Below are positions 33,768 through 51,788 of a DNA stretch of 64,000 bases, one piece after another. The notes under the pieces are model-generated. The model did no database searches. It saw only the letters and a list, made by a program, of their open reading frames with translations, and was not told where the DNA came from. Where the stretch lies: assembly GCA_964537665.1 (NCBI GenBank), contig CAZIBP010000001.1, forward strand, positions 11,972-75,971, given 5' to 3'. The DNA comes from an uncultured Pseudomonadales bacterium (GTDB lineage Bacteria; Patescibacteriota; Microgenomatia; UBA1400; PJMF01). Positions within the stretch are counted from its first letter, which is position 1, and each line of letters opens with the position of its first letter. The position numbers were made by a program, and so were the translations under genes.

Positions 33768-33782
33768 AAGTTAGAGATTATA

Positions 33783-35117: not shown

Positions 35118-35149
35118 TTTTCCACCATTTTTTCCACAATTGTGGAAAA
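35118..35149. promoter_or_regulatory. Cluster of DnaA-box-like sites (TTTTCCACC, and TTTTCCACA/TGTGGAAAA as a head-to-head palindrome) in the dnaA-dnaN intergenic region; candidate oriC element
   Basis: ttttccacc at 35118..35126; ttttccaca at 35130..35138; tgtggaaaa at 35141..35149. One mismatch from the TTATCCACA consensus. An AT-rich intergenic region of about 300 bp surrounds it. Another TTTTCCACA lies at 36842..36850, upstream of dnaA. Confidence 0.5.
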
Positions 35150-35196
35150 AGTAATTGATAATTTGTTTAAAAAACATAAATAGATTGCTATATAGG

Positions 35197-36753
35197 TCAA
35201 TTTGAGATAGCAATTAAGGACATTTTCATAGCAGAAACATCCTGTTGAATGTTTTGATTTAGAATTAAATCTTGCTCAATCTTTTTAACCGCATGAATTA
35301 CACTGCTATGATCTCTTCCAGCAAACCATTGGCCGATTTCTTCAAGAGGAATTTGTAATTCATTGCGTAATAAATACATTGCAATATGTCTAGCCTTAAC
35401 TAGTTCTTTACTGCGCCTTTTTCCTCTAACAGCACTTTGTTTAATTCGATAATGATTAGCGACGGTTTTAATAATATCTTGAGGTTTAGCTTTAATGAAT
35501 TTTTGTTGGTTTTGCTTTATTTCAGATTGTAGAATCTTATCAATTAATTCAACATTTAAGCTTAAATTTTGCAACTCCACAGCTGATCTGATCTTTTTAA
35601 TAATTCCTTCAATCCTTCGAGCACTGTCTACTTGACTAGCAATTTTTTGTGCTAGTTCAATTGGAACATCTAATTTATTAGTTTGTGCTTTTAATAATAA
35701 AATTGCCGTTCTTAGTTCAAAAGTAGGTTGTTGGATATCAATCATTAAGCCAGCCTCAAAACGAGATCTCAAGCGGTCTTCTAAGAGGCTTATTTCTTGT
35801 GGAGGGCGATCTGAAGTTAGAATAATTTGTGAGTTAATTGCAGTTAAAGCATTAAAGGTGTGAAAAAATTCTTCCTGAACTGCGGTTTTGCCAGCGATAA
35901 ACTGAATATCATCAAGGAGGAGTAGATTTGTCTTGCGATATTTGTTTTTCAATTGAAGGGTATTATGACTTTTAATTGCTCTTACAATTTCATTAGTAAA
36001 TTGCTCACCAGAAGCATAAATAATCTCTGCGTCAGGATTCTTTTGTAATAAATGGTGGGCCACAGCATGAATTAAATGTGTTTTTCCCACTCCAACACCT
36101 CCATATAAGAAAAGGGGATTATAGCTAATACCAGGATTATTGGCGACAGCGGTGGCAGCAGCATGAGCCATTTCGTTGCTAGATGAAACAGCAAAGCTCT
36201 CAAAGGTGTAATCTTGACGCAAACCAATTTGTTGGGCTCTAACCTTTAATCTATCAAAAGTGTTGCTGCTGATATTGGCTTGAGAAAAAAGTTCTTCAAC
36301 AGTTGGAGAAGATCTAACACTTTCCCTAATAGAAAAACCCTTGTTATCTATTAAATTACTTCTGAATTGATCATAGTTTTGTTGATTAATTTCTTTTTTA
36401 GAGTCGTTGTTAATCGGTTCTTGATTTTCAATTTTTATTTGACCGGTTTTTTTGTCTAGATTTTGTTTTAGGTCGGTTACAATAAATTCGATCTCTAATG
36501 GTTTGTTAATATATTTTTCTAAAGCGGTTTTAATTTGAGAATATAAATTTGTTCGCAGGTTGGTGACATGAAATGCGGTCATACAACTAATTGTTGCAAC
36601 AGCTTTTTGATTATCTTCAATCTTAATTGAAGTGAGAGGGCTAGGAACGATCCAGGTATTAAAAAATGCAGGGCTAAGGCTGGCTTCCAAATCTAGTTTT
36701 GTCATTTGCCAAACCTGCTTAATTGTTTCAGCATCATAGACCTGCTCTGACAT
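35197..36753 (-). CDS. dnaA: Chromosomal replication initiator protein DnaA
   Basis: Walker A GGVGVGKTHLIHAV, sensor/box VII regions, and C-terminal DNA-binding domain (...KELVKARHIAMYL...). 518 aa. Confidence 0.9.
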   Translation of the reverse strand: MSEQVYDAETIKQVWQMTKLDLEASLSPAFFNTWIVPSPLTSIKIEDNQKAVATISCMTAFHVTNLRTNLYSQIKTALEKYINKPLEIEFIVTDLKQNLDKKTGQIKIENQEPINNDSKKEINQQNYDQFRSNLIDNKGFSIRESVRSSPTVEELFSQANISSNTFDRLKVRAQQIGLRQDYTFESFAVSSSNEMAHAAATAVANNPGISYNPLFLYGGVGVGKTHLIHAVAHHLLQKNPDAEIIYASGEQFTNEIVRAIKSHNTLQLKNKYRKTNLLLLDDIQFIAGKTAVQEEFFHTFNALTAINSQIILTSDRPPQEISLLEDRLRSRFEAGLMIDIQQPTFELRTAILLLKAQTNKLDVPIELAQKIASQVDSARRIEGIIKKIRSAVELQNLSLNVELIDKILQSEIKQNQQKFIKAKPQDIIKTVANHYRIKQSAVRGKRRSKELVKARHIAMYLLRNELQIPLEEIGQWFAGRDHSSVIHAVKKIEQDLILNQNIQQDVSAMKMSLIAISN

Positions 36754-36883
36754 TTTTTGTCTTTCTTTTGAAATAAAACTAACTGGGGCAGTTGTTCTTC
36801 TTAACTAAACCAAAAAAAATACTGCTTACTTATACACAAAGTTTTCCACAAAAAACAAGAGGCAGTTTTGTAATTTAGTTAAT

Positions 36884-39091
36884 TTATTTTGGTGGTTGAT
36901 AGTCGTTTATACTATAAATCCCGTGTTGATCTGGTTTAACTTCTTTTGAAGTTGCTAATTTTTCTTTTTGATCTGTTTCTTCAAAAACTGTTTTGATTTT
37001 ATAATCATTATCTCTATTATCCAATTCTTGGTCTGGATTAAAAGTAAGACGATCGGTTTTTAGGGCAGTTTCTGCATTTTGTTTAGCATTCTTAAGTGGA
37101 TCTTGATTGAGATCAATTTCTTTATTTTCCCATCTGGAAGCTAATTGTTCAGTATCTTTTTTGGTATTTTTAAAGTCGGTGTTATTAATTAATCGTTGTT
37201 TGCGCAGCTCTCTACTTTTTTTATATTCTTCATAGCTGGCTGTTCTTGGCTTTGAGGCAGCATTTAAAGCTTGATTAATTTCTTTATCATCTTTTTTACG
37301 TAGGATCTCTTCTGGATTAGTTGTAATGACACTGTGTTCTTGGGGTGAAGCAATCACTCTTAAGGCGACATGATTCTGACCAGCGAAGAAAATTCCTTCT
37401 CCCACATCTGAGGAGACTAATAATTGACGTTCACCCTCAGATAAATAAAAAGTTTGAGTGAGAATTGGCACTGAAGCAGTCGACTGCTTCATTAAAAATT
37501 GAATGGAAGCATTAGACACAATTGCTTTGCCATAGTCATTGTGGAGAAAGTCTTCTACGTCTTGAGTAATTGTGGTGATACCAAGATAATATTTGCGCGC
37601 TCTTTTAACCATTGAGTAAACAAAGGCAGCACTATCAGGATGCATCATAAAATACCAAGCCTCATCAATTACCAAGATACGTCTTTTAAGATTTTTCTTA
37701 ACTCTTGTCCAAATAAAATCCAAGATGACATACATGGCAATTGGGCGAAGTGATTCTTCCATTTCCTTGACCGAAAAAACAGTAAATTGAGAATGAATGT
37801 CAATATTGGAAGCTTGATCAAAAATTCCGCGAAAAGAGCCAGTGATAAATTTTTCTAAACGAGCAGCAATATCATCACTTTCATCTTGTTCCATACCAAT
37901 TAGAGCCTTATAGAGGTCTTCCATTAATGGTGGAGTATTTTTTTGGGTAGCTGGATCTGGAGTAATTCCTTTAGCTTTATAGGCAGCAATAATTGAACGA
38001 TCAAGTAAAGCTTCTTGTTGTGGGGTCATTTCACCCAGCATAACCTTGAGAAGTCCATGAATAGAGAGTATTTTTTGTCCCAATTCGTTTTCTCCCTCTT
38101 CATAAATGTTGGACAAATCAAAGGGATTAATTTTAGCCTCTGAGCCAAAAGTAAAATTAATGTATTCTCCACCAACCATTTTGCATAATTCTTCATACTC
38201 ATGTTCTGGGTCAAGTACAATGACTTCAGCATCAAACATCAGCTGTCGCAGAACTTCTAGCTTAACAGTATATGATTTGCCAGCACCAGATTTGGCAAAA
38301 ATTACCATATTGGCGTTTTCCATTTTGAAGCGATCAAAGATAACTAGAGAGTCATTATGTTCGTTGATGCCATAAACAATGCCGGTTTCCATAGTTAATT
38401 CGGAAGAGGTGAAAGGAAAAGTGGTAGCTAGGGAAGTGGTGTCCATATTTCTAGTCACAGAAAGACGATCGACACCCATTGGTAAGGTGGTTTTAAAACC
38501 CTCATCCATTTGTAGGGCAGATTTTTTGGAAACAATCATTAAGGCGCCTAAAGTGCTTTGGATGCTTTTGGTGATTTTATCTAACATTTCCTTGCTATCA
38601 GCTCGAACCGTCACATATAAGCCAAATTGAAAAAATCTTTCAGAACCGGCAGCTAACTGCTCTCGCATCGTTCTTGCGTCACTTAATTTGATTTCTGTAT
38701 TAATGTTGCTAATTTTTCCAGATCTAATATCGGAAGTAATTTCAGCTTCCATTTCTGTAATTTTGCGCTTTAGATTATCGAGAATATCGCCGGTATCTGA
38801 TGGAAAAACAAACATCGAAATATTGGCTTGTTGAGGGTAGTTGATGAGTGGTGAAAGCCAGTTGGCTGGGACAGCACGAGGATAGCCAGCAATAAATAAA
38901 GTGCGAGTGTAGGTGGAGTTAATTTTTTGGTAAGTGAAATCGACCTCAATTGCTTCTGGAGCAATAATATCTTGAATCGTTACTAAACCACGAGAAAATT
39001 CGCTTAGTTTCTCTTGAGTATATTGTTCAACATTGATTTTATTTTGATCAGTTGAAGTGATGGTTTTTTTCTTAGCAAAAAGATTAAGCAT
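36884..39091 (-). CDS. VirB4/TrbE/PrgJ-like type IV secretion ATPase
   Basis: Walker A VIFAKSGAGKSYTV, Walker B RRILVIDEAWYFM. 735 aa with the domain order of VirB4-family ATPases. Confidence 0.7.
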   Translation of the reverse strand: MLNLFAKKKTITSTDQNKINVEQYTQEKLSEFSRGLVTIQDIIAPEAIEVDFTYQKINSTYTRTLFIAGYPRAVPANWLSPLINYPQQANISMFVFPSDTGDILDNLKRKITEMEAEITSDIRSGKISNINTEIKLSDARTMREQLAAGSERFFQFGLYVTVRADSKEMLDKITKSIQSTLGALMIVSKKSALQMDEGFKTTLPMGVDRLSVTRNMDTTSLATTFPFTSSELTMETGIVYGINEHNDSLVIFDRFKMENANMVIFAKSGAGKSYTVKLEVLRQLMFDAEVIVLDPEHEYEELCKMVGGEYINFTFGSEAKINPFDLSNIYEEGENELGQKILSIHGLLKVMLGEMTPQQEALLDRSIIAAYKAKGITPDPATQKNTPPLMEDLYKALIGMEQDESDDIAARLEKFITGSFRGIFDQASNIDIHSQFTVFSVKEMEESLRPIAMYVILDFIWTRVKKNLKRRILVIDEAWYFMMHPDSAAFVYSMVKRARKYYLGITTITQDVEDFLHNDYGKAIVSNASIQFLMKQSTASVPILTQTFYLSEGERQLLVSSDVGEGIFFAGQNHVALRVIASPQEHSVITTNPEEILRKKDDKEINQALNAASKPRTASYEEYKKSRELRKQRLINNTDFKNTKKDTEQLASRWENKEIDLNQDPLKNAKQNAETALKTDRLTFNPDQELDNRDNDYKIKTVFEETDQKEKLATSKEVKPDQHGIYSINDYQPPK

Positions 39092-39092
39092 A

Positions 39093-40466
39093 TTATGCTT
39101 GGGTTTTTATTGTTTGATCCGATGGTAATTCTTGATTTAAAATTGGTTCTTGAGCTTGTTCTTCAAATTTATTTTGTAAAGGGGTGATATCCTCCCCAAA
39201 TCCTTCTACTAAGTTGCTGTCAGTCGAATTATCAATTGTTAGATTATTATTAGTGGTGTTGACAGAATTAGCGCTAAGTAAGTTTGGATCTAAATTTAAA
39301 TCAAGCTCTGGCGACTGACTATTAACTACCGGATTTTCTTGATTTGGAAGTTCTGGTGGAACTGATATTGGTGACGAAATAGGTTCCGGAATAGCATTAA
39401 CTGGTTCAGGTACAGTATTTATTGGCGTTGTTTCAATAATTGGCGGCATGTCTATTTCACTAGTGATTTCATTAGCTGTTGCCGCTTTTGCTAGATTTTC
39501 AATTTGAGGGTTGTCTGTTGTGTTGTTTAAATTTGGTTCTGGATAAATAACTGTTTGGGTCGGTTCGTTACTTAAAATCTCTTCAGCACTAGGATTGGTG
39601 GTGATCGGTGAAGACAATTCTGGTTGGTTAATATCTTGCGTAGCTGTAGTAATATTTTCGCTAGCGGCTATGAGAGTATCTTCATTATTTGAAATCGGGC
39701 TGGCAGCGGGGGTTGCTGTTATTTGATCTTGAATTAGAGGGCTTTGTTGGTTGCTTGTTTGATTATTTAGTTGCATAAATTTTCCTCCAAAACTGGCCCT
39801 GACTAGGGGAGTTGTATAATTTTCGCTGCTACTGATTTCTTGTCCTTCAGCAGCTTCAGGATTGTAATTGATATAGAAATTTTGAATAATCTCTTGAGTG
39901 GTTAATTGTCTGGTAAAAAGTCCCAAACGGTTAAATTGAGCAGTTAAATGATCTCGACGTGGCTCCAAAATGTTGGTGGCTTTTTCCAGCAAAATACTTT
40001 TTTCAACACTAGTAATGTCAAAGGCAGTTTTGCCAGGTAAAACTCCAGATGGAGTAATTAATCCCATTTCTCCAGGACTAGCCGGAACAATAATATAGAA
40101 TCTTTTTTGCAAAACATTTCTTTCTTTGATTAGAGTTGCCACGAAATCTCGATATTGTTTAATTAAAGTTGCTTTGCGATCTGAACTAGCTTTCTGGACT
40201 TGCTCTTCGAGAAGTCTTAAATATTTAGTAGCATCTTTAGTTTGAGACTGAATATTAATTTGAATTGGGTAGTTGAGAGAATTAAGCAGCGAACCATAGG
40301 TAAAAATTACGGCATCCTGTTCTTGCTCAGCCAATAAACTAAAATTCATTGTGCCAATTTGTAGAATAACTGAAGCGGTACCGTCTTTTAACAGAACCAT
40401 GTCATTGACGATGTCATAGACATCAAGAAATTCTTGCGTGGTGGAACTAATCACTTTATCGCTCAT
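39093..40466 (-). CDS. Hypothetical protein with a long Pro/Asn/Thr/Ser-rich low-complexity C-terminus, between the PrgI-like and VirB4-like genes
   Basis: 457 aa. N-terminal ~230 aa globular, C-terminal half low-complexity (PxxP-rich, ...PEPVNAIPEPISSPISVPPELP...). 1-nt gap to the VirB4-like gene. Confidence 0.4.
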   Translation of the reverse strand: MSDKVISSTTQEFLDVYDIVNDMVLLKDGTASVILQIGTMNFSLLAEQEQDAVIFTYGSLLNSLNYPIQINIQSQTKDATKYLRLLEEQVQKASSDRKATLIKQYRDFVATLIKERNVLQKRFYIIVPASPGEMGLITPSGVLPGKTAFDITSVEKSILLEKATNILEPRRDHLTAQFNRLGLFTRQLTTQEIIQNFYINYNPEAAEGQEISSSENYTTPLVRASFGGKFMQLNNQTSNQQSPLIQDQITATPAASPISNNEDTLIAASENITTATQDINQPELSSPITTNPSAEEILSNEPTQTVIYPEPNLNNTTDNPQIENLAKAATANEITSEIDMPPIIETTPINTVPEPVNAIPEPISSPISVPPELPNQENPVVNSQSPELDLNLDPNLLSANSVNTTNNNLTIDNSTDSNLVEGFGEDITPLQNKFEEQAQEPILNQELPSDQTIKTQA

Positions 40467-40475: not shown

Positions 40476-41345
40476 CTAGTTTACTAAATTTTGAGGCTTG
40501 ATTACAAGGGGACCTAGTATTTCACCCTTTAATTCTATTTGCGAGCTTGGATATTTGTATTCATTTTTTTCTACCAAGACAAAATAAATTCCATTACTGA
40601 GAGGTTTATTGACCTGAAAATTACCAGCTTCATCGCTTTTCATTATTCTCAAGCTCTGACCTTTCTGATCCTTAATTTCCACAATGGCGTTGACAACAGC
40701 TATGCCGTGTTGATCTAAAACCAAGCCAAAAACTTGATTGGGCAGATGATCGCCATTAGTGATAAAAGTTTGAGGGGTGTTTAATTTTCTAACTCTGGTT
40801 TGTAAACTGGGTTTTTCTTGTTTTTTTAATTCAATTTCAACATCTGTTGACCTGACCTGAACCTTGTCATATTCGCCTAAAATATTACTAATTTTTTGAT
40901 TTTCTTGCAGGTCAAATTGATCAACTCTCTCATCAGAGGGGATGCTTTTTAGATATTCAAAAATTCTTTGTTTGCGTGCGGGGTTTAAATTAACATCTGG
41001 AGCAAAAAAATCACTTTGTGTGCTGCTAATCTTATAATTAAAAAGATCAGGAATTTTGTTGGCTTTTTTCCAGAAAAACTTAGTTGGTTTATAGATGTTT
41101 TTAAAGAAAGTCTTAATCCAATGATCAAGCGGTCTTTCTTCAATTGGCACAAAAGCCACCATTGCCCCAAAACCAACAGTAATAAAAACTAAAGGCCATT
41201 TGATAATTCCGATTAAGTTGGTCTTAAAAATTGCGAAAGCAATTACCACTGCCACAGCAATCTCGGCAAATTGTTTGAGAGTCATGCTACCTATAAGGTG
41301 AAACTTATAGTTGGTGATGTCTTGAGGAATAGGATGTTGTTTCAT
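40476..41345 (-). CDS. PrgI/VirB3-like two-TM membrane protein fused to a C-terminal carboxypeptidase-regulatory-like (Ig-like) domain
   Basis: The N-terminal ~90 aa has two TMs (FAEIAVAVVIAFAIF / WPLVFITVGFGAMVAFVPI) and sits immediately before the VirB4-like gene, as PrgI does. The C-terminus GLVLDQHGIAVVNAIVEIKDQKGQSLRIMKSDEAGNFQ resembles the CarboxypepD_reg fold. Confidence 0.45.
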   Translation of the reverse strand: MKQHPIPQDITNYKFHLIGSMTLKQFAEIAVAVVIAFAIFKTNLIGIIKWPLVFITVGFGAMVAFVPIEERPLDHWIKTFFKNIYKPTKFFWKKANKIPDLFNYKISSTQSDFFAPDVNLNPARKQRIFEYLKSIPSDERVDQFDLQENQKISNILGEYDKVQVRSTDVEIELKKQEKPSLQTRVRKLNTPQTFITNGDHLPNQVFGLVLDQHGIAVVNAIVEIKDQKGQSLRIMKSDEAGNFQVNKPLSNGIYFVLVEKNEYKYPSSQIELKGEILGPLVIKPQNLVN

Positions 41346-41405: not shown

Positions 41406-42401
41406 CTATTTTTCTAAAGCAGTGTTAACTGCTGGAGTAATAATTTGAGCTTGAATGTTGATGCCAGCGGCGTTAGTTAATTTTGCTTGAAACTTATAAA
41501 ATGGATAGACAATTTTTAAACTCTCATCAAGACGATAATCGACTGAAACATCGTACAAATCAGCCTCATTAATCCAATTTAAATCAATCACCTCAACCAA
41601 CTGGCTTTTGGCATCAATGATGGAAGCTTTACCATTTTTAATATTTCTAACCGCTTGATCAAGGCTAATGGTTGGCAAATCTTTAATTGGTGCAAAATTG
41701 TAGAAAAAATCTTTAAAAACCACTCTTTCTACTTGATAGTTGTTGTTAATCTTGCAAAAAAATGGGTAGCTGTTCTCATTTTGATAAAACACAGGATAAC
41801 CGTCCAATTGGTAGCTAAGTGGTACTTGGATGTAGTTGGCTCGAGCTAATTCTGTTTCTGTTTGTTCTGATCTGCCGCTTAAAAAAACCAGATGATCTTT
41901 TTGTGCAATTAAAATTAAATTAACACTATATTTTGAATAAAAATTAAGACAGCTCTTAATTGCTTCGCTTGGAATCATTTGAACTTGATTTGTGGCCTGA
42001 CTGGTATCAAGATCAAAAGCATAGCGGTTTTCATAGGTGTTTTTATTTAAAATGTAAGCTCCTTTTGCCCAATAATTTTCCAGTGAGCCAACATTTTCAA
42101 GCTTATACTCATCGATCATTTTTTGTGCTAATTCACTGGATAAATCTAGAGTTCCGTTAATTTTGTAGATCTTCATTTTTTCTGGTAATGAAATTTCTTC
42201 ACCAGAAAAAGAGATTTTTTTGAAAGTGCTTTTACTTTGATCATAGTTATTAACCACAAAGTCAGTTTGAATAACTTTTTCTTGTTGTGGAGTAATAATG
42301 GTTAAAATGGCGGAAATAAGTAGAGCAAATACGACAAAAACAACTAAAAGAGGAATAACTTTTATTTCTTTTTTAACTTTATTTTTTTGGCTTTGATTCA
42401 T
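41406..42401 (-). CDS. Bitopic membrane-anchored extracytoplasmic protein (possible VirB8/PrgL-like component; no motif support)
   Basis: 331 aa with a single N-terminal TM (VIPLLVVFVVFALLISAILTIITP). The remainder is predicted extracellular. Confidence 0.35.
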   Translation of the reverse strand: MNQSQKNKVKKEIKVIPLLVVFVVFALLISAILTIITPQQEKVIQTDFVVNNYDQSKSTFKKISFSGEEISLPEKMKIYKINGTLDLSSELAQKMIDEYKLENVGSLENYWAKGAYILNKNTYENRYAFDLDTSQATNQVQMIPSEAIKSCLNFYSKYSVNLILIAQKDHLVFLSGRSEQTETELARANYIQVPLSYQLDGYPVFYQNENSYPFFCKINNNYQVERVVFKDFFYNFAPIKDLPTISLDQAVRNIKNGKASIIDAKSQLVEVIDLNWINEADLYDVSVDYRLDESLKIVYPFYKFQAKLTNAAGINIQAQIITPAVNTALEK

Positions 42402-42404: not shown

Positions 42405-45400
42405 TTATTCATAACAAGTGGTGACGTTGTCGCCATTTTTGGGGGGATAGTTCCCATTATCTGCTTCAGGTACCAGAGTTTCAAGAATGGAAAAATTTCT
42501 AGAACTTGGACTGTAAAAAGCTCCATTAAAATCTACTTCATAATGAAGATGTTTGCCGGTTGAATTGCCGCGATTACCCATTAGACCGATAGCAAAGCCC
42601 TCGTCAACATTCATACATGAATTAGGTTGGCTGAGTTGAGAATTGGCTGATTCAAAGTGCGCAAAAAGTAATTTGCGACTGGTACCATTATCATCAAAAG
42701 TGAGAATAAAATAACAACCATAACCAGTGTCACTACACTTAATAAAACAGAGACTGCCAGGAAAAGTGGTATAAACCATACGAACAACATCATCGGGTCC
42801 ATCACTATCGGTAATATCGTAAGCATCAGCGTAACCTCCAGATTCTGGAGGACGATGTGAAGCATCATCATCAGGAATACCCTGTCCAAAAGGCAATTGA
42901 CTAATGTTACCAGTGGTTGGCCAGCAGCCAGCTCCAGCACTACACTCACCCAGACAAACTCTGGCCGCAGTAATGACATTATCAGTGCCAGACATGTAAG
43001 AGTTTTGGTAATAAAAATTAACTTCGATAGTGTTAAGAATGGCAGTGTGGTTGTAGTCGGAACTTAGATTGTCTAAAGTGTAAGTGAAAGTTAGGCTGCT
43101 GCCTGCCTCAATAATAATATTTTCACTACTACCAGATGGAATTGGTGTGGTGGGATTGGGATTGCCCACGCCTAGTGTGGGGGTTGTTGTGGGACTAAGA
43201 GAAGTATTGCTCAGTCCTCCTTGCTGACCAATAATTCCCTTGAAGTATTCAAAGTCTAAAACCTTTTCCGTTGGAATATTGGGTGGAGATTGACCTGCGT
43301 CTTCCCACGCCTTTTTACTTTGTTTAAATTTAATAGTGTCTTCAATGTTGGTGATTTGCAGCGAAAAATCTTCCTTGGGCTTGATAGTGACGGTGTATTC
43401 AATGGAGACGGGAAAAGATGGATTTTCACATTTAGTGCCATTGCTTTCTGGGCTAGGGCAACCGCTTTTAATCACGGCTGTTTTACTAATTTCGGCATAT
43501 TTGGAAGTTTTTTCAACACTATTGATGCCGGCAGCATTTGGATCATTGAAAGGGAAGTCGGTCAAAAAAGCTGAATTTAAACTAGTTTGATAAACATACA
43601 TAAAAATGGTGCTAGCCCCAACGGTGGCAATTACAGCTTGACCGGCAGTAATCATCGCTCCAGAAGAAATACCACTAGTCAGAGTTTTAAGGCCCTGTGC
43701 TGCTTGGGTGGTAGCGACTTGGTTTTGAGTAGCTTGTGCTGTTAGTCCCTGCTTGCCAAAACCACCAATTCCTTCGCTGATCTGATTAATTGCTTTACCT
43801 CCACCAGTGAAAAAATCCTTAATTCCACCCCAAGCGTTACGCAAAAAAATTGCCGCAGGAGCCAAGATCAGTAATAATGGCAACATGGAGCCAAGCGCCG
43901 CCAAAATTCCCAAACCAAGCAACCAAGGCCAATTTTTCTTGATAAATTCAAGAACTTTTTCCAGGCCCATTTCTATTAGTTTTTCTTTGAGTTGTTTGAC
44001 AAGTGGAACTGCTGCTTCAGCAGCTCGCAGAGCTTCTCCCCAGCCACCAGCCGCATCAAGAGCTAGATAAAGCCCTTCACTTAGGGCTTTGGTGGCTAGT
44101 TTTTTGCTCTGCTGACCCAGAGCACTGTCCATAAAATCAGTGCTCTGATAATTACTATTTGAGGCAAAAGCTTGCTGAGCCCAACCATCTCCATTCTGAT
44201 AAAAGGCATTGTTTCTAGCAAAGTTGGTGGCGCGCTCAAAAATACTAGTCCCAAGCGTTTCATTAGCTTGGAGCATATAGAAATCCATGGGATTAATTTG
44301 AGGAAGGACTTGGGTTTGGAAAATTTGGATACTATATTCTTGAATAGTATAGCCAGGCAAATAAAAATCAAAATATACTTTGAGAGTTTTTTGCTGCTCT
44401 GCTTCGCTCATCTTGGCCAATTGTTCTTCTAGGTTTTTTTTGATGAGGTCTTGTTGTTGGCCAATAAATTGGTTGACTTCAGCTCCATCCACTTTGGCAT
44501 TAGCTGAGCCAGCTAATTTTTCTGCAATTTCTCTGCCGCCATAAGTGAGATTGAGAGTGCCTAAATTGCGTAATTGAGCAATTTTTTGAGGATTTTTGCT
44601 AATTTCTTTAAGTAATTGTTGGGCTTCTTCCGGAGTGTATTTTTCTTGGGCAAATTCTTGGCGAATTTCACTAGCCCAGATAATCCTTTTTCTTTTCCAG
44701 TAAAAAATAATTAAGTTGGCTAACTCTTCTCGATGATTATTAAACTCAGAACGTTCGATGCTAGTGCCAAAAATATTAACAAATCTGTTGTAATCAAAGT
44801 TTTTTGGATCAGGAATCAGGTATTCTGGAGGCAAACCTTGTTGAATGAAGACTTCGATCAAAGGTCGAACGTTATCGGTGATTAATTTAATTTTAAAATT
44901 ATCTTGATTACCAATAATTTGGCGAATTTTCTCTCCAAAAATTTGTTCCAGTCGTCCTTCATCTTGGACAATATTTAATTCTGATTCGATTTTCCTAGCA
45001 AAGTCTTGATTACTTTGACCTTCATCTTGTTTTTGCTGCAGAATTGCTTGGGCCTGAGCAGTGTTAGTGGAGTTTTCCTTGTCATTTTTGATGCGAGGAC
45101 TAAGTTTGTCGTTTGTGAGTTTTTCTTTTTCGTTGGCTTTAATTTTCGCTGCTGCCTTTTGACCATCTTTGGCAATTTCGCGAACGCTATCATTAAGCAA
45201 CTTAAGACCATGAACATCCATAAGCAAGCCGAGTGCGGCTTGATTGCTAAAATTAATACGCTTAGATTGCTCTCTAATTAAACTGTCCAAAGAGAATTGA
45301 CCGCTTAGAAGTAGGTTTTCCACCTGTAAAAAAGCTCGATCCATTAGTTGACGTCGCACATCAAGGGGTAGCTGATCAAAAGTAACCTGAGTACCCGGTG

Positions 45401-46235
45401 GCAAGCCAATTTTGGCTAGAGAAGCCTCATTAAAATATCTATTAAGAGCTTGATTGATGGTGATGATGGAGAGTGATTGGAGGTAAAGTCGAGACTGAGG
45501 ATCAAGCTCTGAGATTTTAATGGGGGTTGTGTCAGTGTTAGGCTCTTGAGTTTTTTTTGGCTCGCGACTTTGACTGGATTCAGCTTCGCCACCACCTCTC
45601 TCTGTTTCTTGAGGCTTTTTTTGACCTGGAAAAAGTCCAGCCAGGCCTAGTCCGCCAGTACTAGTGGAGGTGACACTTGGCGTTGTTTCCGCAATTTCCT
45701 CCTCAATTTTTTCTTCTGGAGCAATACTTGGTGCCAAGATTAAATAAATTAATTTAATGCGTTCAACAATCCTTCTCGAATAATCTATGTACTCAATTCT
45801 TTGTAGGTCTTCAATGCTAACCTTATCACCTGCTGGTTCCACACCCACTAATTTAAAAGTGCTTTCCAGTCGGTCTAATTCTTGTCTTTGAGTTGAGCTG
45901 ATGGAAATGTTGTTGCTACTTAAAGAAGTGCGGATTTGTTCAACAAAATTAACCAAGTCAGACAAAAACAAAAAAGGCACTTTGCCTCTGGGTGGGGCAA
46001 TACCATTTAAAATGTCAGCAGCAGTGCTAAGATCAAATTCGCCGCCATAACTAAAGCCTTCAATCGCAAAATCACCTTTGACTTTTTTGTCTCCTGCTGC
46101 TTCAGCATAAAAATTGCTAATCCAGCCAGCACTTCTCTGGAGAATTTCACGAATTTGAGCGGCACTGAGACTCTCAACGCCGGCTAGTTTCTTCAGTTCG
46201 ATTCGAGTTTTTTGATTAATTGCTTCTGCTGCCAT
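42405..46235 (-). CDS. Giant membrane protein with a C-terminal M23 (LytM-type) metallopeptidase domain; candidate cell-wall hydrolase of the T4SS-like apparatus
   Basis: 1276 aa. Central TM cluster (NWPWLLGLGILAALGSMLPLLLILAPAAIFL; AMITAGQAVIATVGASTIFMYVY). C-terminal KLLFAHFES ... GNRGNSTGKHLHYEV matches the M23 blocks (xLYAHLS / GSTGxSTGPHLHFE). Confidence 0.65.
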   Translation of the reverse strand: MAAEAINQKTRIELKKLAGVESLSAAQIREILQRSAGWISNFYAEAAGDKKVKGDFAIEGFSYGGEFDLSTAADILNGIAPPRGKVPFLFLSDLVNFVEQIRTSLSSNNISISSTQRQELDRLESTFKLVGVEPAGDKVSIEDLQRIEYIDYSRRIVERIKLIYLILAPSIAPEEKIEEEIAETTPSVTSTSTGGLGLAGLFPGQKKPQETERGGGEAESSQSREPKKTQEPNTDTTPIKISELDPQSRLYLQSLSIITINQALNRYFNEASLAKIGLPPGTQVTFDQLPLDVRRQLMDRAFLQVENLLLSGQFSLDSLIREQSKRINFSNQAALGLLMDVHGLKLLNDSVREIAKDGQKAAAKIKANEKEKLTNDKLSPRIKNDKENSTNTAQAQAILQQKQDEGQSNQDFARKIESELNIVQDEGRLEQIFGEKIRQIIGNQDNFKIKLITDNVRPLIEVFIQQGLPPEYLIPDPKNFDYNRFVNIFGTSIERSEFNNHREELANLIIFYWKRKRIIWASEIRQEFAQEKYTPEEAQQLLKEISKNPQKIAQLRNLGTLNLTYGGREIAEKLAGSANAKVDGAEVNQFIGQQQDLIKKNLEEQLAKMSEAEQQKTLKVYFDFYLPGYTIQEYSIQIFQTQVLPQINPMDFYMLQANETLGTSIFERATNFARNNAFYQNGDGWAQQAFASNSNYQSTDFMDSALGQQSKKLATKALSEGLYLALDAAGGWGEALRAAEAAVPLVKQLKEKLIEMGLEKVLEFIKKNWPWLLGLGILAALGSMLPLLLILAPAAIFLRNAWGGIKDFFTGGGKAINQISEGIGGFGKQGLTAQATQNQVATTQAAQGLKTLTSGISSGAMITAGQAVIATVGASTIFMYVYQTSLNSAFLTDFPFNDPNAAGINSVEKTSKYAEISKTAVIKSGCPSPESNGTKCENPSFPVSIEYTVTIKPKEDFSLQITNIEDTIKFKQSKKAWEDAGQSPPNIPTEKVLDFEYFKGIIGQQGGLSNTSLSPTTTPTLGVGNPNPTTPIPSGSSENIIIEAGSSLTFTYTLDNLSSDYNHTAILNTIEVNFYYQNSYMSGTDNVITAARVCLGECSAGAGCWPTTGNISQLPFGQGIPDDDASHRPPESGGYADAYDITDSDGPDDVVRMVYTTFPGSLCFIKCSDTGYGCYFILTFDDNGTSRKLLFAHFESANSQLSQPNSCMNVDEGFAIGLMGNRGNSTGKHLHYEVDFNGAFYSPSSRNFSILETLVPEADNGNYPPKNGDNVTTCYE

Positions 46236-46297: not shown

Positions 46298-49126
46298 TTG
46301 GTTCTTTTAGATCAAAAATGGTATAATAACAGTGTATCTAAAGATAGAAGACTTATGATTAAACCAGGTCAAGAAAATCCAGTTGAAAATGAACAAGGCT
46401 TTGAAACTGCTGATAGTTGGATTGCCAGAAAAGAAGAAGAACTCCAAGAATTAATTATCGAGATAGAAACACAACTGAGCTTAGACGGAATTAGTAAAGG
46501 TCAAAAACACAATAAAGATAAGGAAATAGAGTTAACTTTTAATGCTGGAGCAAAAGCAATCATTTTAGAATTGGAAAAAAGAAAAAGAAAAGCTCCAGTA
46601 GATGTTCCAAAGTATGAAGCTTTCAGGTTAAGTATTTTTACTTTAAGAGAAAAGTTTTTTAAGGATTGGGGAGTGGCTGTTGATAAAAATGAAGAGGTTT
46701 TGAATGTTGGTAAAATGACTCTTCGTGAAGTTGCCGACTATGTCTTAGAAAAAGAACTTGTTTTTTGGACTGGTGAACATGATGGCTGGACAGATGAGAA
46801 TGACCGAAGAGTAGTCGATGCTTTGGTCCAAAGATTATGGAAAGACAAAGACAAGATTTCTGGATTGACCAAAGATGCTATACCTGGAGAGAAAAGAACT
46901 GATGGCTCACCACATTACTTTGCAGATTTAGACGTCAGAGAGATAGTCAGTGATTTACAGATATTAGGTTTATTTGGGATTCTGAATGAAAAAGGTGCTG
47001 AAAGAAAAGATGACGGCGTAGCAGAAGGTAGGATAACTCAACTAGAATCTGCAATGGCTACTTTGCAAATTTCCAAAGAAAGGCTTAATGAAACTACCCT
47101 AGCTCACCCTAGAACTGGTTTGGTGCTATACGAGATGCTAAGAAGAATGAAAGATCAGCCAGCTTTGAGGGATGGTAAGACGCCGGTTTTAAACGAAGGA
47201 AAATTGCCACCTGGTTTTGGAAGAGCTCCGGTTAACGATAGAATAGTTCAGAGAGGAAGTACGAAGATTGTCTTATATGGAGATAGATATAAAGAAAGTT
47301 TTGACGAATCTGGAAACGTGACTAGTCGTGAAGTTGTTGAATATACTCCTCTGGAAGCTGGAGATACGCTAATTATAGATTATTCCCAAACAACCGATGG
47401 TTTTGTTAGAAAAGCCTTGCCAGACAGAGTTGTTGAGAGAAATGGAATGGATGTTTTGTTAGTGGGAGACAGACTAAATAAAATAGTGAATAAGGATGGA
47501 AAAGAGATTGGTGCAAGATGGTATGATCCAGATCAAGCTCTTCCAACTGATACTAATTTGTATCAATTTGATCCTAGATTTTCTTACGAAACTTTAGCCA
47601 GTGACACTGGTAAGGATACTTTAAAGAAGTATGCAGCACACCTTTTATCTTTGATAGAGGAGCAAAGATTGGAAGAAAAAGATGCTAAAGATCAAAGTAG
47701 AGTTTTAGATTGGTCAAAAATTCACTTTAAAGAATTAATTGGTTTTAAATTTCCAGATCCAAGTGATGAAAAATTTGGTAAGGGAGATATTAGAAGATTA
47801 GAAATGTATGCTAGATACTTATTTTTTTGTTTTCCTTTCCTTACTAATATCTTAGCTATTAGACAAGAGAGAACACAGACTCCTTCTCATGGTTTTAACA
47901 ATAAGGACATTCCTTTTGTTTGGATTTTTAACATGCTTGGATTTATTTCTCATAAATCACAAAGATATGCAAACTCAGACAATGCTTACTACTACATGCT
48001 TAAGTTTTTTAAACCACTAAGAGAGGGAGCATATGGTGCTGGAGGTGAAGCGAGAAGATTAAATGCGGTGAGAGATTTGATTATTAAATACGATAAAGTT
48101 TTTAGTGATGATCAGGATAATGTTTCAGTTATCCCCAATATGCCCTATGGCTCATCAGTTTTTCACACAGCGCTCAGCATGTTGTCTTTGGCTCCTGGTG
48201 ATACCTCTGCTTTGAGCGGTAGAGCTGAGTTATATGATGGGACTATCCTAGATGGAACACCAGACAAGCCTGTTTTTCTTAGTTTAGGTGGAGTAAGAGC
48301 TCCAAAAAGAAAAGAGCCATATAATTTTAGTTTGCTTTACACTTCAATTAGAGCTTGGGATACTCTCACAACAGGTTCTTTACAATCCTTGCCTGGAAAT
48401 TTAACAATCGCTTCTATTGCTGAGGGTGGTGGAAAGGATAAATCTTTTATATCTCAGAAATATGGAGACAACGTTGGTCAGGCCAAGATGAGTGACACGA
48501 GAACAAGAGAAAAGGATAAGATTCCGAGCCTCAAGGAATTTAATCATTTGAAATTAGCTGCTAATTTAATTTGGGATACTGTACAAAGAATTTTCAGAGA
48601 ATACCCGGCAAATAGTATTGAGGCAAGAATTAAACTTTACGAAGAGCTTGAAAAAGGTTTTAGACATACTGCTGAGGTTGGTGGTTTATCTGCTGGTGAT
48701 TCAGCTGAAGTTCTAACTTGGGTTTTGGATAAAATGTCCAAACCAGATAGAGACGGCAAATTATATGGTAAAGGAGTTGGTGGATTTGCCGGCATGAACC
48801 CTTGTTTGGCATATAGAGAGGCAACAATTGATGGTAAGAGGGGTAAAGAAGTTTTTGAATATGTTGAGGCTCTTTGGAACTACAAACACTCTGATGCTGA
48901 AGGAAAGGTTACTAAACCATTTCCTTTCAAACTAGTTGCCGGAACCAGTGGTACTGGTTATGTTGCTATAAACAAACAATTTGTGAAGCATGCTTTTGAT
49001 CCCGATCCAGAAATAGAAGAATATAAAGGTATGCTTTATGGTTATAAGATGGAAAAGGGCGAAAAGAAAAAAGCAAGATTGCCAGAGCCTATTGCTAGAA
49101 TTAACCTAGATAAGCACGAAGACTAA
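46298..49126 (+). CDS. Large (942 aa) soluble hypothetical protein, opposite strand, embedded in the T4SS-like cluster
   Basis: No TM, no nucleotide-binding or known catalytic motif recognisable by eye. Divergently transcribed from the M23 giant gene across a 62-bp gap. Confidence 0.5.
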   Translation: MVLLDQKWYNNSVSKDRRLMIKPGQENPVENEQGFETADSWIARKEEELQELIIEIETQLSLDGISKGQKHNKDKEIELTFNAGAKAIILELEKRKRKAPVDVPKYEAFRLSIFTLREKFFKDWGVAVDKNEEVLNVGKMTLREVADYVLEKELVFWTGEHDGWTDENDRRVVDALVQRLWKDKDKISGLTKDAIPGEKRTDGSPHYFADLDVREIVSDLQILGLFGILNEKGAERKDDGVAEGRITQLESAMATLQISKERLNETTLAHPRTGLVLYEMLRRMKDQPALRDGKTPVLNEGKLPPGFGRAPVNDRIVQRGSTKIVLYGDRYKESFDESGNVTSREVVEYTPLEAGDTLIIDYSQTTDGFVRKALPDRVVERNGMDVLLVGDRLNKIVNKDGKEIGARWYDPDQALPTDTNLYQFDPRFSYETLASDTGKDTLKKYAAHLLSLIEEQRLEEKDAKDQSRVLDWSKIHFKELIGFKFPDPSDEKFGKGDIRRLEMYARYLFFCFPFLTNILAIRQERTQTPSHGFNNKDIPFVWIFNMLGFISHKSQRYANSDNAYYYMLKFFKPLREGAYGAGGEARRLNAVRDLIIKYDKVFSDDQDNVSVIPNMPYGSSVFHTALSMLSLAPGDTSALSGRAELYDGTILDGTPDKPVFLSLGGVRAPKRKEPYNFSLLYTSIRAWDTLTTGSLQSLPGNLTIASIAEGGGKDKSFISQKYGDNVGQAKMSDTRTREKDKIPSLKEFNHLKLAANLIWDTVQRIFREYPANSIEARIKLYEELEKGFRHTAEVGGLSAGDSAEVLTWVLDKMSKPDRDGKLYGKGVGGFAGMNPCLAYREATIDGKRGKEVFEYVEALWNYKHSDAEGKVTKPFPFKLVAGTSGTGYVAINKQFVKHAFDPDPEIEEYKGMLYGYKMEKGEKKKARLPEPIARINLDKHED

Positions 49127-49192: not shown

Positions 49193-50866
49193 TTATTTTT
49201 TGCTTTTATTGAAATAGTCGCCCATCATGGTAGTGAGATCTTCTGGATCAAAAGCTCTTCCCTCAGCGATTCTATCTAGTTGTATTCTGACCTTCTTGCC
49301 AGATTCAAAACCTTTTTGTAATCCACCTGCCCCATTTTCCATGCCTCTTGTTTTGCTTCCAGTGACACCACCAAAGGCAATTGGAGTTTCATCATCACCA
49401 GTTCTAGAATATCCTTGCCAACCAGCCTTGACGGCTTTCAGTAAGCTTTCATCTGGGTTATCTTTTCTAAATGCTGCTCCAGCTCTTACTCCACCATAAG
49501 CACCTTGTAATCCAGCACCAATTAGAGGAGCAGTGATTGTGCCTTCTTTAATTCTACCCATTGCATCTTTAGCCAACTGTCCAAAAATACCTTCGTCTAC
49601 GCCCATAGCTTTTTTGACTTGCTGCATAATTTCTGGAATAACTAACAAGACACCAATGCCAAGAATGACCGGAACAATGGCGCCTTGTCCTTGACCCATT
49701 AAAAATGGCGGCATAAAACCACCACCAAAAGAAGCATCCAAAGCTTGGCCGGTACCCTGCATGCTGCGAATTGGTGCAGTTAACATGCGTTGCACTAGGA
49801 CACAAAGTAAGACTACTGGCCAAAGGATTAAGTTGCCGACAAGATCTTTGATCCATTTACCAAAAACATTTTTACCTGGAAAAGCTCCAAGCATCAAAAT
49901 AATTGGCGAAAAAATAATTTGGATCAAAACTGCCACGTAAGTTTTGACCAACTCAAAAAATACCTTAAAAGTGGCGAAAAGAATGGCAATGCCAATAATG
50001 ACCGTGCCAAGTAAACTAGACATCCAAGCTAAAGCTTCACCCACAAAACCAATATTTAGCGCATCTTCCATGAATTGTTCGATCGCGTTCTGGGTGGTAC
50101 CAGTGGTGCCCTTAAACATTAAGCCCACTAGGCCAAAAATATTACGAGTGACGATATCTGGACCTTCAGTGAAAAAGCCAGCCAACATGTACATCACCAC
50201 ATACATCAGATCAATCATAAAGCCAGCAATGGCGTAGGAAAAAGTAACTGCCAGCATAGCGATGATAATATTGGGAATGGCTTGCTGAGCAGTGATGGCG
50301 GCTTGGCCAACTTTGGTTCTAAACATGATCATAAAACCAATGACCAAGAAGGCGACTACAAAAAATAGATAAGCGAGATTGCGAAAAGCTTTCCAGGTTT
50401 CTAAGATTGGATCGAGGGCTGAAAAACCTAAGCCTTGAGCTTGTGCCTCTGGGATAATTTTCGCCGATTTCATCACATCTGCCACATAAGAGCGAGCACT
50501 GGCTGGTGGGGTGTAAAGAGCTACGATGCCTTTGTTTACATCCCCAAGCACTCCATAACCGATCTGTTTCTCTAGGGCTTTTCTCTCACTAGTGGTCATG
50601 CTACCGTCATTAGGAATGGCGGCCATACCGATGGCGTGCAGGTTGATATTGGTGAAAGTGTTGGACAAACTCTCGGCATCAAACTTTTCTTTGTCGGCAT
50701 TTTTGCTGGAAAAAGCAGTCACACTTTTATCAGTTGACTCATTGGTGAAAATGCCAGCTAGCCAATCAAGAATTCCGACTGCTCGCGCAGGTTTAACTGA
50801 CGTCAAAAAACAAGCCAAAACCAAAGACAAAATCAACAATAGGCGAGAAGTTTTCTGCTGTATCAT
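49193..50866 (-). CDS. VirB6/TrbL/PrgH-like polytopic membrane protein (inferred)
   Basis: 557 aa. Signal peptide, then at least 6 long hydrophobic segments (e.g. ALAWMSSLLGTVIIGIAILFATFKVFFELVKTYVAVLIQIIFSPIILMLGAF) and a Gly-rich C-terminal tail; architecture typical of VirB6-family proteins. Confidence 0.45.
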   Translation of the reverse strand: MIQQKTSRLLLILSLVLACFLTSVKPARAVGILDWLAGIFTNESTDKSVTAFSSKNADKEKFDAESLSNTFTNINLHAIGMAAIPNDGSMTTSERKALEKQIGYGVLGDVNKGIVALYTPPASARSYVADVMKSAKIIPEAQAQGLGFSALDPILETWKAFRNLAYLFFVVAFLVIGFMIMFRTKVGQAAITAQQAIPNIIIAMLAVTFSYAIAGFMIDLMYVVMYMLAGFFTEGPDIVTRNIFGLVGLMFKGTTGTTQNAIEQFMEDALNIGFVGEALAWMSSLLGTVIIGIAILFATFKVFFELVKTYVAVLIQIIFSPIILMLGAFPGKNVFGKWIKDLVGNLILWPVVLLCVLVQRMLTAPIRSMQGTGQALDASFGGGFMPPFLMGQGQGAIVPVILGIGVLLVIPEIMQQVKKAMGVDEGIFGQLAKDAMGRIKEGTITAPLIGAGLQGAYGGVRAGAAFRKDNPDESLLKAVKAGWQGYSRTGDDETPIAFGGVTGSKTRGMENGAGGLQKGFESGKKVRIQLDRIAEGRAFDPEDLTTMMGDYFNKSKK

Positions 50867-50963: not shown

Positions 50964-51788
50964 ATGATCGATCATGCACAAACTGATAAATTCAGGGACA
51001 TTCTAGAGCTTAGCAAAAATACACTGTTGATTTTTAAGGAGAGTAAAGATCTTGATTTATTTCTTGCCAGTTATTGTTTATTTTCCTTTCTAGTGAGAGA
51101 AAAAGAAATTCGTCTTTTAACTCCCAAATTTAAACTAAAACTTCCCAAGTCATTAACAGATTTAATCGACCTTAAAAAGATTGAGACAGAACTGGGTAAA
51201 GAAAATTTATTGATTAGTTTTCCTTACCTTGAAGAGCAAGTCGACAAAGTTTCTTACTATATTGGTGAACACGATCAGCGTTTTTATCTCACTATCAAAC
51301 CAAAAAGTGGTGTAGCGGCAATTGATAGTTCTAAAGTGGAATTTTCTTATGCCGGAACCCAAGCTGATTTGTTAATTCTATGTGGAGTGGAGGATTTGGA
51401 AAAATTGGAACAGCTCTATTTTGCTTATGAGGATTTGTATAAAACCAATAATAATCATGTGGTGACCCTCAATCACTTTATTCCAGATTTTGGCACTCTC
51501 AACTTAGATATTTCAGGAGCTAGTTCTTATTGTGAGGCGGTTTACTATTTGCTCAAAGATTTGGGAGAAGATAAACAAGATTTTTTGGCCAAAAGTGATT
51601 TACCAACCTTACTACTTTATGGGATTGAATATAGTAGTCGTGGTTTACAATCTATGGACACCACAGCGAGCACTTTCCTCAGCGTGGCAGAATTACTAAA
51701 GCTTGGTGCTACTCGGCTTTTTAAATTAGATTTGCCAGCAAACGTAAAAACTATTGGGCAGCAGCCCCAGATTCATTCAATAAAATAG
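50964..51788 (+). CDS. Hypothetical protein (possibly a degenerate DHH/NrnA-like fold)
   Basis: 274 aa, soluble. Weak resemblance to DHH phosphoesterases, but the DHH catalytic residues are not evident. Confidence 0.3.
   Translation: MIDHAQTDKFRDILELSKNTLLIFKESKDLDLFLASYCLFSFLVREKEIRLLTPKFKLKLPKSLTDLIDLKKIETELGKENLLISFPYLEEQVDKVSYYIGEHDQRFYLTIKPKSGVAAIDSSKVEFSYAGTQADLLILCGVEDLEKLEQLYFAYEDLYKTNNNHVVTLNHFIPDFGTLNLDISGASSYCEAVYYLLKDLGEDKQDFLAKSDLPTLLLYGIEYSSRGLQSMDTTASTFLSVAELLKLGATRLFKLDLPANVKTIGQQPQIHSIK

Follow-up and report, generated by a model that had tools for sequence, protein, structure and literature searches.

A 1276-residue membrane protein with a C-terminal M23 peptidase domain as a putative wall-opening subunit of an origin-proximal type IV secretion system in Pacebacteria-type genomes

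The minus strand of a 64,000-nucleotide (nt) stretch of contig CAZIBP010000001.1 (the window, by which we mean this whole stretch), a low-GC (about 29-42%) chromosome segment around the replication origin of a Candidate Phyla Radiation (CPR) bacterium, encodes a 1276-residue membrane protein that ends in an M23 peptidase domain and lies in the gene cluster of a type IV secretion system (T4SS). The account we favor, at a probability of roughly 55%, is that this protein is a peptidoglycan endopeptidase subunit, a functional analogue of VirB1 and PrgK, of a chromosomal, oriC-proximal, MPF-FATA-like T4SS, and that it opens the producer's own wall. According to this model, the 768-residue N-terminal module would remain in the cytoplasm, a hairpin (residues 769-803) and a transmembrane helix (residues 859-886) would anchor the protein in the membrane, and the juxtamembrane segment, the β-sandwich spacer, and a disulfide-stabilized M23 domain would lie outside it. 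Zinc would be held by H1127, D1137 or D1140, and H1231, with H1193 and H1229 as catalytic residues, in an M23A (LasA-type) arrangement. The enzyme would cut peptide cross-links locally in the producer's wall so that the channel and pilus could pass, and the cytoplasmic module would dock it to the ATPase complex or regulate it through that complex. In this view, the chassis is conserved and the extracellular peptidase would act as its exchangeable cartridge.

New in this work are the definition of the family and its fixed position in the cluster, the M23A-type variant of its active site, its inferred topology, the orphan 768-residue module predicted to be cytoplasmic, and the exchange between M23 and C39-like domains. 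Already known were a T4SS-associated wall hydrolase in a CPR T4SS cluster, the automatic M23 annotation of the family, and a similar giant peptidase that stands without comment in the Southlakia data.

Gene, protein, and family

The open reading frame (ORF), with an ATG start and a TAA stop in the ORF listing, was present exactly as described by the sequence-only reading, an earlier note made from the letters of the window, and the gene is clearly genuine. Its parts are as follows.

42405..46235, minus strand: whole ORF, 1276 residues plus TAA; T4SS-cluster membrane protein with an M23 peptidase at the C-terminus
45717..46235, minus strand: residues 1-173, N-terminal α/β domain, predicted cytoplasmic, possibly GAF-like
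45522..45716, minus strand: residues 174-238, disordered acidic Ser/Thr/Gly-rich linker (predicted local distance difference test [pLDDT] below 50; 18% mean pairwise identity)
43932..45521, minus strand: residues 239-768, large all-α module, predicted cytoplasmic, with no known relatives
43827..43931, minus strand: residues 769-803, hydrophobic with a central Pro, modeled as a helical hairpin (alternatively a kinked or re-entrant helix) and flanked on either side by Lys/Arg
43662..43826, minus strand: residues 804-858, Gly/Gln-rich disordered loop with 3-6 Lys/Arg, putatively cytoplasmic
43578..43661, minus strand: residues 859-886, conserved transmembrane helix AMxTAGQAVxATVG, the putative outward carrier of the chain
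43497..43577, minus strand: residues 887-913, juxtamembrane NSAFLTxFP...VEKTSKY, the most conserved part, kept in C39-type orthologs
42951..43496, minus strand: residues 914-1095, β-sandwich (Ig/ApaG-like) spacer with invariant C926 and C936
42501..42950, minus strand: residues 1096-1245, Cys-rich M23 metallopeptidase domain
42855-42857 (H1127), 42825-42827 (D1137), 42816-42818 (D1140), 42657-42659 (H1193), 42549-42551 (H1229), and 42543-42545 (H1231), minus strand: invariant residues
42405..42500, minus strand: residues 1246-1276 plus stop, conserved tail SILETLVPE...VTTCYE with invariant C1274

Among 5.8 billion clustered proteins, a search identified 35 further full-length relatives (1223-1319 residues, 37-65% identity), and a profile search added more distant ones, for a total of about 40 full-length sequences. 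The core alignment of the family comprised 35 sequences; four more distant members also bear an M23 domain (P0040-P0043), and P0044 and P0045 are the most distant. One relative is named 'M23 family metallopeptidase [Patescibacteria group bacterium]' at NCBI and others are labeled Candidatus Pacebacteria. As far as record titles show, the family is confined to Pacebacteria-type CPR genomes. Loci L006-L009 and L012, which carry the cluster, come from records with the titles 'uncultured Pseudomonadales bacterium' or 'candidate division TM6 bacterium', evident taxonomic mislabels. Mean pairwise identity differed by part, from 71% in the juxtamembrane segment through 62% in the sandwich, 54% in the M23 domain, and 47-56% in the N-terminal module to the low value of the linker.

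Putative active site of the M23 domain

The M23/LytM blocks recognized earlier at the C-terminus, FAHFE (residues 1191-1195) and GNRGNSTGKHLHYEV (residues 1220-1234), are borne out by both profile and fold. The Pfam profile Peptidase_M23 (PF01551) matched residues 1154-1239 (E 7.8e-07; 29.6 bits against a cutoff of 28.7), distant family members scored 28.9-45.5 bits, and the PDB chains matched by the family profile were M23 only. An AlphaFold model of residues 740-1276, built with the family alignment, was confident from about residue 909 and reached a pLDDT of 80-94 across the M23 domain, for which Foldseek against the PDB gave a probability of 1.00 to ShyA (the top match), Csd1/Csd2, EnpA, lysostaphin, LytM, and, from a phage, an M23 protein of the pre-ejectosome. 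The M23 fold takes up the C-terminal 180 residues.

The six putative metal-binding and catalytic residues (H1127, D1137, D1140, H1193, H1229, and H1231) and eight Cys were invariant in the 35-sequence alignment, and P0040-P0043 kept the same six, which extends their conservation to about 39 sequences with identity down to 34%. The earlier suggestion that an M23 profile should reveal both HxxxD and HxH held for one motif and not for the other: the HxH (H1229-L-H1231) and H1193 were in place, whereas the Pfam alignment begins at profile position 16, after HxxxD, and a family motif, H-x(9-12)-D-[AS]-[YF]-D (H1127-x9-D1137-x2-D1140 in the window), replaces it. This variant corresponds to the M23A form of the motif and differs from the M23B form. 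Beta-lytic protease has the catalytic residues His22, Asp36, His82, His121, and His123 and needs intramolecular disulfides (PMC8715609). BLASTP of residues 1095-1276 against LasA (LasA sequence verified, 182/182 identical to 3it5_A) gave E 9e-07 over 140 columns and placed H1127 opposite His23; the first motif of LasA is His23/Asp36, with His23 as a zinc ligand. In hhalign, the family domain aligned with LasA over 128 columns, from QLPF/QLPW through HLH[YF]..NGAF (probability 70.9, E 3.7e-05), and the same profile aligned with lysostaphin (M23B) at a probability of 91.9 over only 80 columns that start past the lysostaphin HxxxD. Phmmer placed M23B chains ahead of 3it5. In our reading, the core of the domain would be generic M23, and its first-ligand segment would be of the M23A type.

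Because all six residues are invariant, the M23 domain is probably catalytically active rather than a pseudo-peptidase; the catalytic-type His and Asp that would be missing from a dead domain are retained throughout, albeit with a noncanonical HxxxD. When the Cys-rich M23 module was sought in other architectures by a word-indexed search, only three fragments on short contigs were returned.

Membrane segments and topology

The hydrophobic segments fall where they had been predicted, after a long soluble N-terminal part. The first 768 residues contained no hydrophobic segment and no signal peptide. They are followed by a hydrophobic stretch of 30-35 residues (769-803), modeled by AlphaFold as two helices broken at P786, and by a third segment (859-886) of weaker hydrophobicity that is highly conserved and modeled as a helix. 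A Pfam EI24/CysZ match at residues 757-793 (16.5 bits against a 32-bit cutoff) was dismissed as transmembrane-helix noise. C-terminal to these segments, the β-sandwich gave only weak Ig-, ApaG-, and arrestin-like matches in Foldseek against the PDB; a Pro/Thr-rich insert, modeled with low confidence, breaks it near residues 1017-1035.

The Cys-rich region described earlier proved to be sharply bounded, with all 10 Cys of the protein beyond residue 926 (none in residues 1-925; 2.85% in residues 926-1276), and across the family, 9 Cys fell in the N-terminal part, 0 in the transmembrane region, and 376 in the C-terminal part. Soluble proteins of the window averaged 0.62% Cys and Cys-rich exported ones 2-8%, and every window protein above 2% Cys bore an N-terminal or internal hydrophobic segment. 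Lys and Arg flank the first hydrophobic stretch throughout the family and occupy the Gly-rich loop of 51-72 residues, and the 27 residues past the third helix hold 0-1 Lys/Arg and 3-5 Asp/Glu. The distribution of Cys and the flanking charges favor an N-in/C-out arrangement, in which the hairpin, a cytoplasmic loop, and the third segment would bring the C-terminus outside; the M23 domain is therefore likely to be extracytoplasmic.

The T4SS operon

The association of the protein with a secretion apparatus, proposed by the sequence-only reading, is supported by its position. On the minus strand, its gene is followed by those for a 331-residue bitopic protein, a PrgI/VirB3-like protein, a TraC-like protein, and VirB4, and then by dnaA, dnaN, rnpA, and yidC. 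The order pilins, polytopic protein, the 1276-residue-type protein, bitopic protein of about 330 residues, PrgI/VirB3, TraC-like protein, VirB4, and dnaA is fixed in the family: it recurred wherever a related locus had sufficiently long flanks (16 loci, 12 species-representative genomes among them), even where the protein itself was only 26% identical. Only 3 nt separate its stop codon from the 331-residue gene, indicating tight operon packing. The neighboring features are as follows.

41406..42401, minus strand: 331-residue bitopic protein with one N-terminal transmembrane segment, syntenic partner
40476..41345, minus strand: PrgI/VirB3-like protein fused to a C-terminal CarboxypepD_reg (Ig-like) domain
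39093..40466, minus strand: TraC-like/TrsD-like 457-residue protein, an N-terminal VirB4-type module as its own ORF
36884..39091, minus strand: VirB4-like T4SS ATPase, 735 residues (NCBIfam CD1110 family, 390.9 bits)
49193..50866, minus strand: polytopic 557-residue membrane protein, syntenic, about 7-8 hydrophobic segments; the better VirB6 candidate of the cluster
54706..55437 and 55434..56306, minus strand: genes for two VirB2-like T4SS pilins, each with a Cys-rich extension at the N-terminus

The locus matches the published picture of Patescibacteria T4SSs, which are MPF-FATA-like, lie near dnaA, lack a relaxase, carry arrays of VirB2-like pilins, and show a 'scarce' VirB6 in Microgenomatia, and in which VirB1 homologues are mostly not linked to virB4 (PMC12102498). 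The 557-residue polytopic protein, which had no Pfam match, is a candidate for that VirB6. The 331-residue protein has a possible VirB8/PrgL-like role; a PDB sequence search at E up to 10 was empty for it, and no meaningful Pfam match was obtained. We also considered and rejected the 1276-residue protein itself as the missing VirB6/PrgH-like channel subunit, given its 2-3 hydrophobic segments, where such a subunit should have five or more transmembrane helices, and the separate syntenic polytopic protein; no VirB6, TrbL, or PrgH profile matched it.

Since many M23 enzymes serve growth and division, since ShyA is the top Foldseek match, and since many core genes lie near dnaA, the protein might be a housekeeping wall-remodeling or division endopeptidase (MepM/ShyA-like) whose T4SS neighborhood is incidental to its place near oriC. 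We consider this very improbable: the adjacency to the T4SS genes and the operon packing are invariant across loci, the N-terminal module occurs only in this architecture and clade, and housekeeping endopeptidases are not known to carry 768-residue cytoplasmic modules.

Several further observations concern the cluster. VirB4 is apparently split, the 457-residue ORF matching the N-terminal part of mycoplasma-type VirB4 models and the 735-residue ATPase beginning 1 nt later, and this split is kept in all related loci. The fusion of PrgI with CarboxypepD_reg recurs in locus L004. In both pilins, the pilin domain is C-terminal, after long N-terminal extensions with 12 and 10 Cys, and the pilin genes come after a 975-residue exported protein with 21 Cys (51751..54678, minus strand). 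A divergent gene at 46298..49126 (plus strand) encodes a syntenic, soluble 942-residue protein without a Pfam or NCBIfam match. Its evolution is very rapid: it showed 24-57% identity in loci whose VirB4 proteins showed 83-93%. A promoter and terminator scan of the operon stayed at chance level. Together with an AT-rich stretch (28-30% GC) over about 28000..36900, the cumulative GC-skew minimum, which falls near dnaN and dnaA (about 34-36 kb), places the likely oriC directly beside the T4SS operon. Transcription of that operon and of dnaA would then proceed toward the origin.

Probable exchange of the peptidase domain

The most distant matches, P0044 (1096 residues) and P0045 (1117 residues), align with the family across the N-terminal module, the AMxTAGQAV helix, and NSAFLTxFP. 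Neither has the sandwich or the M23 domain, and both end instead in a domain of about 170 residues with the signature ACGPTS...GH[YF]YI...[YW]DP. The two C-termini matched Peptidase_C39_2 over the full length of the profile, with E values of 0.002 and 0.0045 (19.1 and 18.0 bits, under the 24-bit cutoff), and their next-best Pfam matches were also papain-like families; a PDB sequence search with the C-terminus of P0044 gave no significant match. As judged from these sub-threshold Pfam matches, the domain is a probable C39-like cysteine peptidase. P0044 (L004:10001-13291) occupies the same syntenic slot as the protein of the window. The lineage thus keeps its chassis and appears to swap one putatively extracellular peptidase fold for another, M23 or C39-like, and this exchange would argue that extracellular peptidase chemistry is the selected function.

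The exchange also bears on whether the domain needs to be catalytic at all. The protein might be a structural T4SS subunit, a scaffold that replaces VirB8, VirB10, or an extended VirB6, with a noncatalytic M23 domain that only binds peptidoglycan or regulates a hydrolase in the manner of PrgK-LytM, EnvC, NlpD, and DipM. Such a role would fit the catalytically dead, regulatory LytM domain of PrgK, the missing HxxxD and marginal Pfam score described above, and the scarce or undetected VirB6 and VirB8 homologues of Microgenomatia (PMC12102498), and the third segment and juxtamembrane part, as the most conserved regions, suggest protein-protein contacts. However, degenerate LytM domains lose metal-binding and catalytic residues, whereas this family keeps all six in about 39 sequences, and the replacement domain of the distant orthologs retains a Cys/His/Asp peptidase signature. 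Moreover, no further wall hydrolase was detected beside the protein in the conserved gene block, and a separate polytopic protein is available as the VirB6 candidate. We therefore regard a purely structural role as unlikely.

The N-terminal module

Structure prediction, which the sequence-only reading had proposed for the N-terminal part, resolved it into a confident α/β domain (residues 1-173), the disordered linker, and an all-α module modeled at a pLDDT of about 80 over residues 240-660 or so. No relative of either fold emerged: the module had no meaningful Pfam match, no PDB sequence match, and no Walker A motif, and the best Foldseek match of its model had an E value of 1.2. The best-conserved motifs (LSIITINQAL..YF, TFDQLPL.VRQQLMDRAF, IQQGLPPEYL, and FYWKRKRAIW) lie in residues 239-768. 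When 1.84 billion representative proteins were searched exhaustively with a profile of the module, only 18 matched, and the full-length ones all measured 1096-1319 residues; the module is thus known only in the architecture of the 1276-residue protein.

A further, rather doubtful reading gives the module a larger part. The chassis (the 768-residue module, the hairpin and transmembrane helix, and NSAFLTxFP) might be an unrecognized core T4SS subunit of Pacebacteria and Microgenomatia that connects the cytoplasm with the exterior. It would couple the state of the VirB4/TraC ATPases, or a ligand recognized by the putative GAF-like domain, to an exchangeable extracellular peptidase (M23, C39-like, or possibly M15-like in Saccharimonadia), which would breach the host wall and gate the epibiotic connection. 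It could apply to systems without a coupling protein, a relaxase, or a recognizable VirB6 or VirB8.

Own wall or host wall

The peptidase might alternatively be directed at the host, as a weapon or conduit opener that, positioned at or released into the junction between epibiont and host, cuts host peptidoglycan for access by the T4SS or pilus or for lysis and feeding. The segment of the first motif resembles that of the M23A enzymes LasA and beta-lytic protease, which are secreted, bacteriolytic, and stabilized by disulfides, and CPR T4SSs lack a relaxase and a coupling protein and are essential for epibiotic growth. In the same loci, best-segment identity was 26-66% for the N-terminal half of the protein and 32-44% for its C-terminal half, against 83-93% for VirB4, as expected for surface-exposed, host-facing proteins, and the exchange of catalytic cartridges between lineages could track host wall chemistries. 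On the other hand, the domain is covalently tethered to the producer membrane through a short conserved segment and one β-sandwich, with no evident cleavage site or pro-peptide, and the predicted extracellular domains are not the fastest-evolving part (the sandwich and M23 domain exceed or equal much of the range of the N-terminal module in the identities given above). PrgK, the studied analogue, acts on the donor's own wall (PMC11323569). In our estimate, a host-directed enzyme is clearly less probable than one that opens the producer's own wall.

Several points weigh against the account we favor. The Pfam M23 score is marginal, the canonical contiguous HxxxD is absent (Ala stands four positions before D1140), and the loop around H1127 was modeled with a pLDDT below 50 on both sides. 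The membrane part could also be oriented otherwise: if residues 769-803 formed a single transmembrane segment and residues 859-886 a second, the M23 domain would be cytoplasmic, and the first hydrophobic stretch of P0044, at about 21 residues, is too short for a hairpin. The role assigned to the N-terminal module is pure inference. No VirB1, TrsG, CD419, SLT, lysozyme, CHAP, or NlpC/P60 profile in Pfam or NCBIfam matched at E up to 1, so that the protein would be an analogue of VirB1 and not a homologue. Finally, the evidence would fit the host's wall as substrate as well as the producer's. On balance, the available evidence speaks for an outside peptidase and not for the cytoplasmic placement that would have counted against the earlier reading.

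Other features of the window

Several genes elsewhere in the window lie outside the main subject. Adjacent ORFs of 491 and 388 residues (218..1693 and 1705..2871, both plus strand) contain 33 and 31 Cys (6.7% and 8.0%) and, because they have hydrophobic segments, their products are probably exported. They are followed by a tRNA-Ile with the anticodon TAT (UAU), as called by ARAGORN (2919..2995, plus strand). This anticodon is unusual, since in most bacteria AUA is read by a CAU tRNA that carries lysidine. Between the genes for ribosomal protein L25 and an RNase H-like protein, 28300..31149 (minus strand) encodes a 949-residue protein with an N-terminal anchor, an internal transmembrane segment, and a DUF4012 domain (53.8 bits).

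Significance

CPR bacteria, or Patescibacteria, make up a large share of bacterial diversity. To our knowledge, the T4SS of the CPR member Southlakia is the only T4SS known to be essential for the growth of its owner, and we know of no account of what cargo a CPR T4SS carries or how it crosses two cell envelopes. The family described here would fill the slot of wall hydrolase for one Microgenomates-type clade, for which the survey cited above found VirB1 rarely linked to virB4 and VirB6 scarce, and its design appears modular, with interchangeable peptidase cartridges on a conserved cytoplasmic and transmembrane chassis. Should the enzyme prove to be directed at the host, the way in which epibionts breach their hosts would become directly accessible at the molecular level. 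An enzyme for the producer's own wall would be an ordinary, though unusually built, analogue of VirB1. The interest of the finding lies mainly with specialists on T4SSs and CPR bacteria.

Comparison with known systems

The closest studied counterpart is PrgK of Enterococcus faecalis pCF10, a VirB1-like protein of the 'DELTA class' that, like the protein of the window, is encoded in an MPF-FATA-type operon beside PrgI and PrgJ (VirB4) and places an intracellular N-terminal domain and a transmembrane helix before an extracellular wall-hydrolase part that includes LytM/M23, an order predicted for our protein too. In PrgK, the intracellular domain is followed by a helix at residues 254-274 and by LytM, muramidase, and CHAP domains; its LytM lacks HxxxD, HxH, and metal and acts as a regulator, and PrgK, without which the T4SS does not function, binds the bitopic VirB8-like PrgL and is brought to the machine by it (PMC11323569). 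The two differ in that catalysis by PrgK lies in the muramidase and CHAP domains, whereas the M23 domain of our protein is the sole hydrolase domain and has all the catalytic-type residues. The predicted cytoplasmic module is also three times larger (768 against about 253 residues), and there are 2-3 hydrophobic segments against one; no sequence homology between the two was detected.

The sequence-only reading had regarded an M23 enzyme as foreign to the wall-breaching role in such systems and as a distinct solution. The first idea stands only in part: PrgK already carries a LytM (M23) domain, and the protein of the window differs from it in having M23 as its only, and apparently competent, hydrolase domain. 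The second is not supported, since PrgK LytM, the Patescibacteria VirB1 homologues with M23, SEML1_0007, and the NCBI naming of the family all precede it. VirB1 homologues with added Peptidase_M23 domains have been reported in Patescibacteria, and 'peptidase and lysozyme homologues' beside virB4 are essential in Southlakia (PMC12102498).

In the Southlakia supplements, SEML1_0007 of Ca. Southlakia epibionticum ML1 (Saccharimonadia) is a hypothetical protein of 1113 residues (3342 nt) whose gene adjoins the VirB4 gene SEML1_0008 and scores as essential (class ES) in transposon sequencing (Tn-seq). Its residues 951-1105 are assigned to the ECOD group Hedgehog/DD-peptidase, a Zn-peptidase fold, and its AFDB neighbors include M15B- and M23-domain proteins with template-modeling (TM) scores of 0.61-0.63, among them a 'Peptidase M23 domain-containing protein' at 0.61. 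It shares with our protein the CPR origin, a similar size, an oriC-proximal T4SS cluster, and a C-terminal Zn-peptidase fold, and differs in having an M15-like peptidase and in lying downstream of virB4, where ours lies upstream of PrgI; Southlakia also has a separate lysozyme/Cys-peptidase protein, SEML1_0006. Profile searches with our N-terminal module returned no SEML1_0007-type sequence relatives among the matches. By architecture, SEML1_0007 is best read as a close analogue in another CPR class, and its essentiality hints, only indirectly, that our protein may also be needed for T4SS assembly or function.

With the M23A enzymes LasA and beta-lytic protease, the protein shares the long His-Asp spacer (H23...D36-A-S-Y-D40 in LasA, H1127...D1137-A-Y-D1140 here), QLP[WF], HLH[FY] followed by NGAF, disulfides, and extracytoplasmic action, the last two being predicted for our protein. 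Unlike it, LasA and beta-lytic protease are small secreted pre-pro-enzymes of Proteobacteria without a membrane tether, and most of their Cys positions differ; our protein has neither a signal peptide nor a pro-peptide and so departs from the M23A pre-pro architecture. The core of its domain scores at least as well against M23B as against M23A enzymes. The M23B group (ShyA/MepM, Csd1-3, NMB0315, LytM, and lysostaphin) shares the fold, the central catalytic His, and the HxH and supplies the best sequence and Foldseek matches, but its members have a contiguous HxxxD and are not known to carry a large cytoplasmic module or to belong to a T4SS operon.

TraG of pIP501 resembles our protein as a membrane-associated hydrolase encoded with VirB4, VirB6, and VirB3 homologues, and TcpG (pCW3) and CwlT (ICEBs1) occupy the same functional slot as TraG. 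All three differ from our protein in combining SLT, glucosaminidase, or muramidase domains with CHAP or NlpC/P60 and in having neither an M23 domain nor a large cytoplasmic module.

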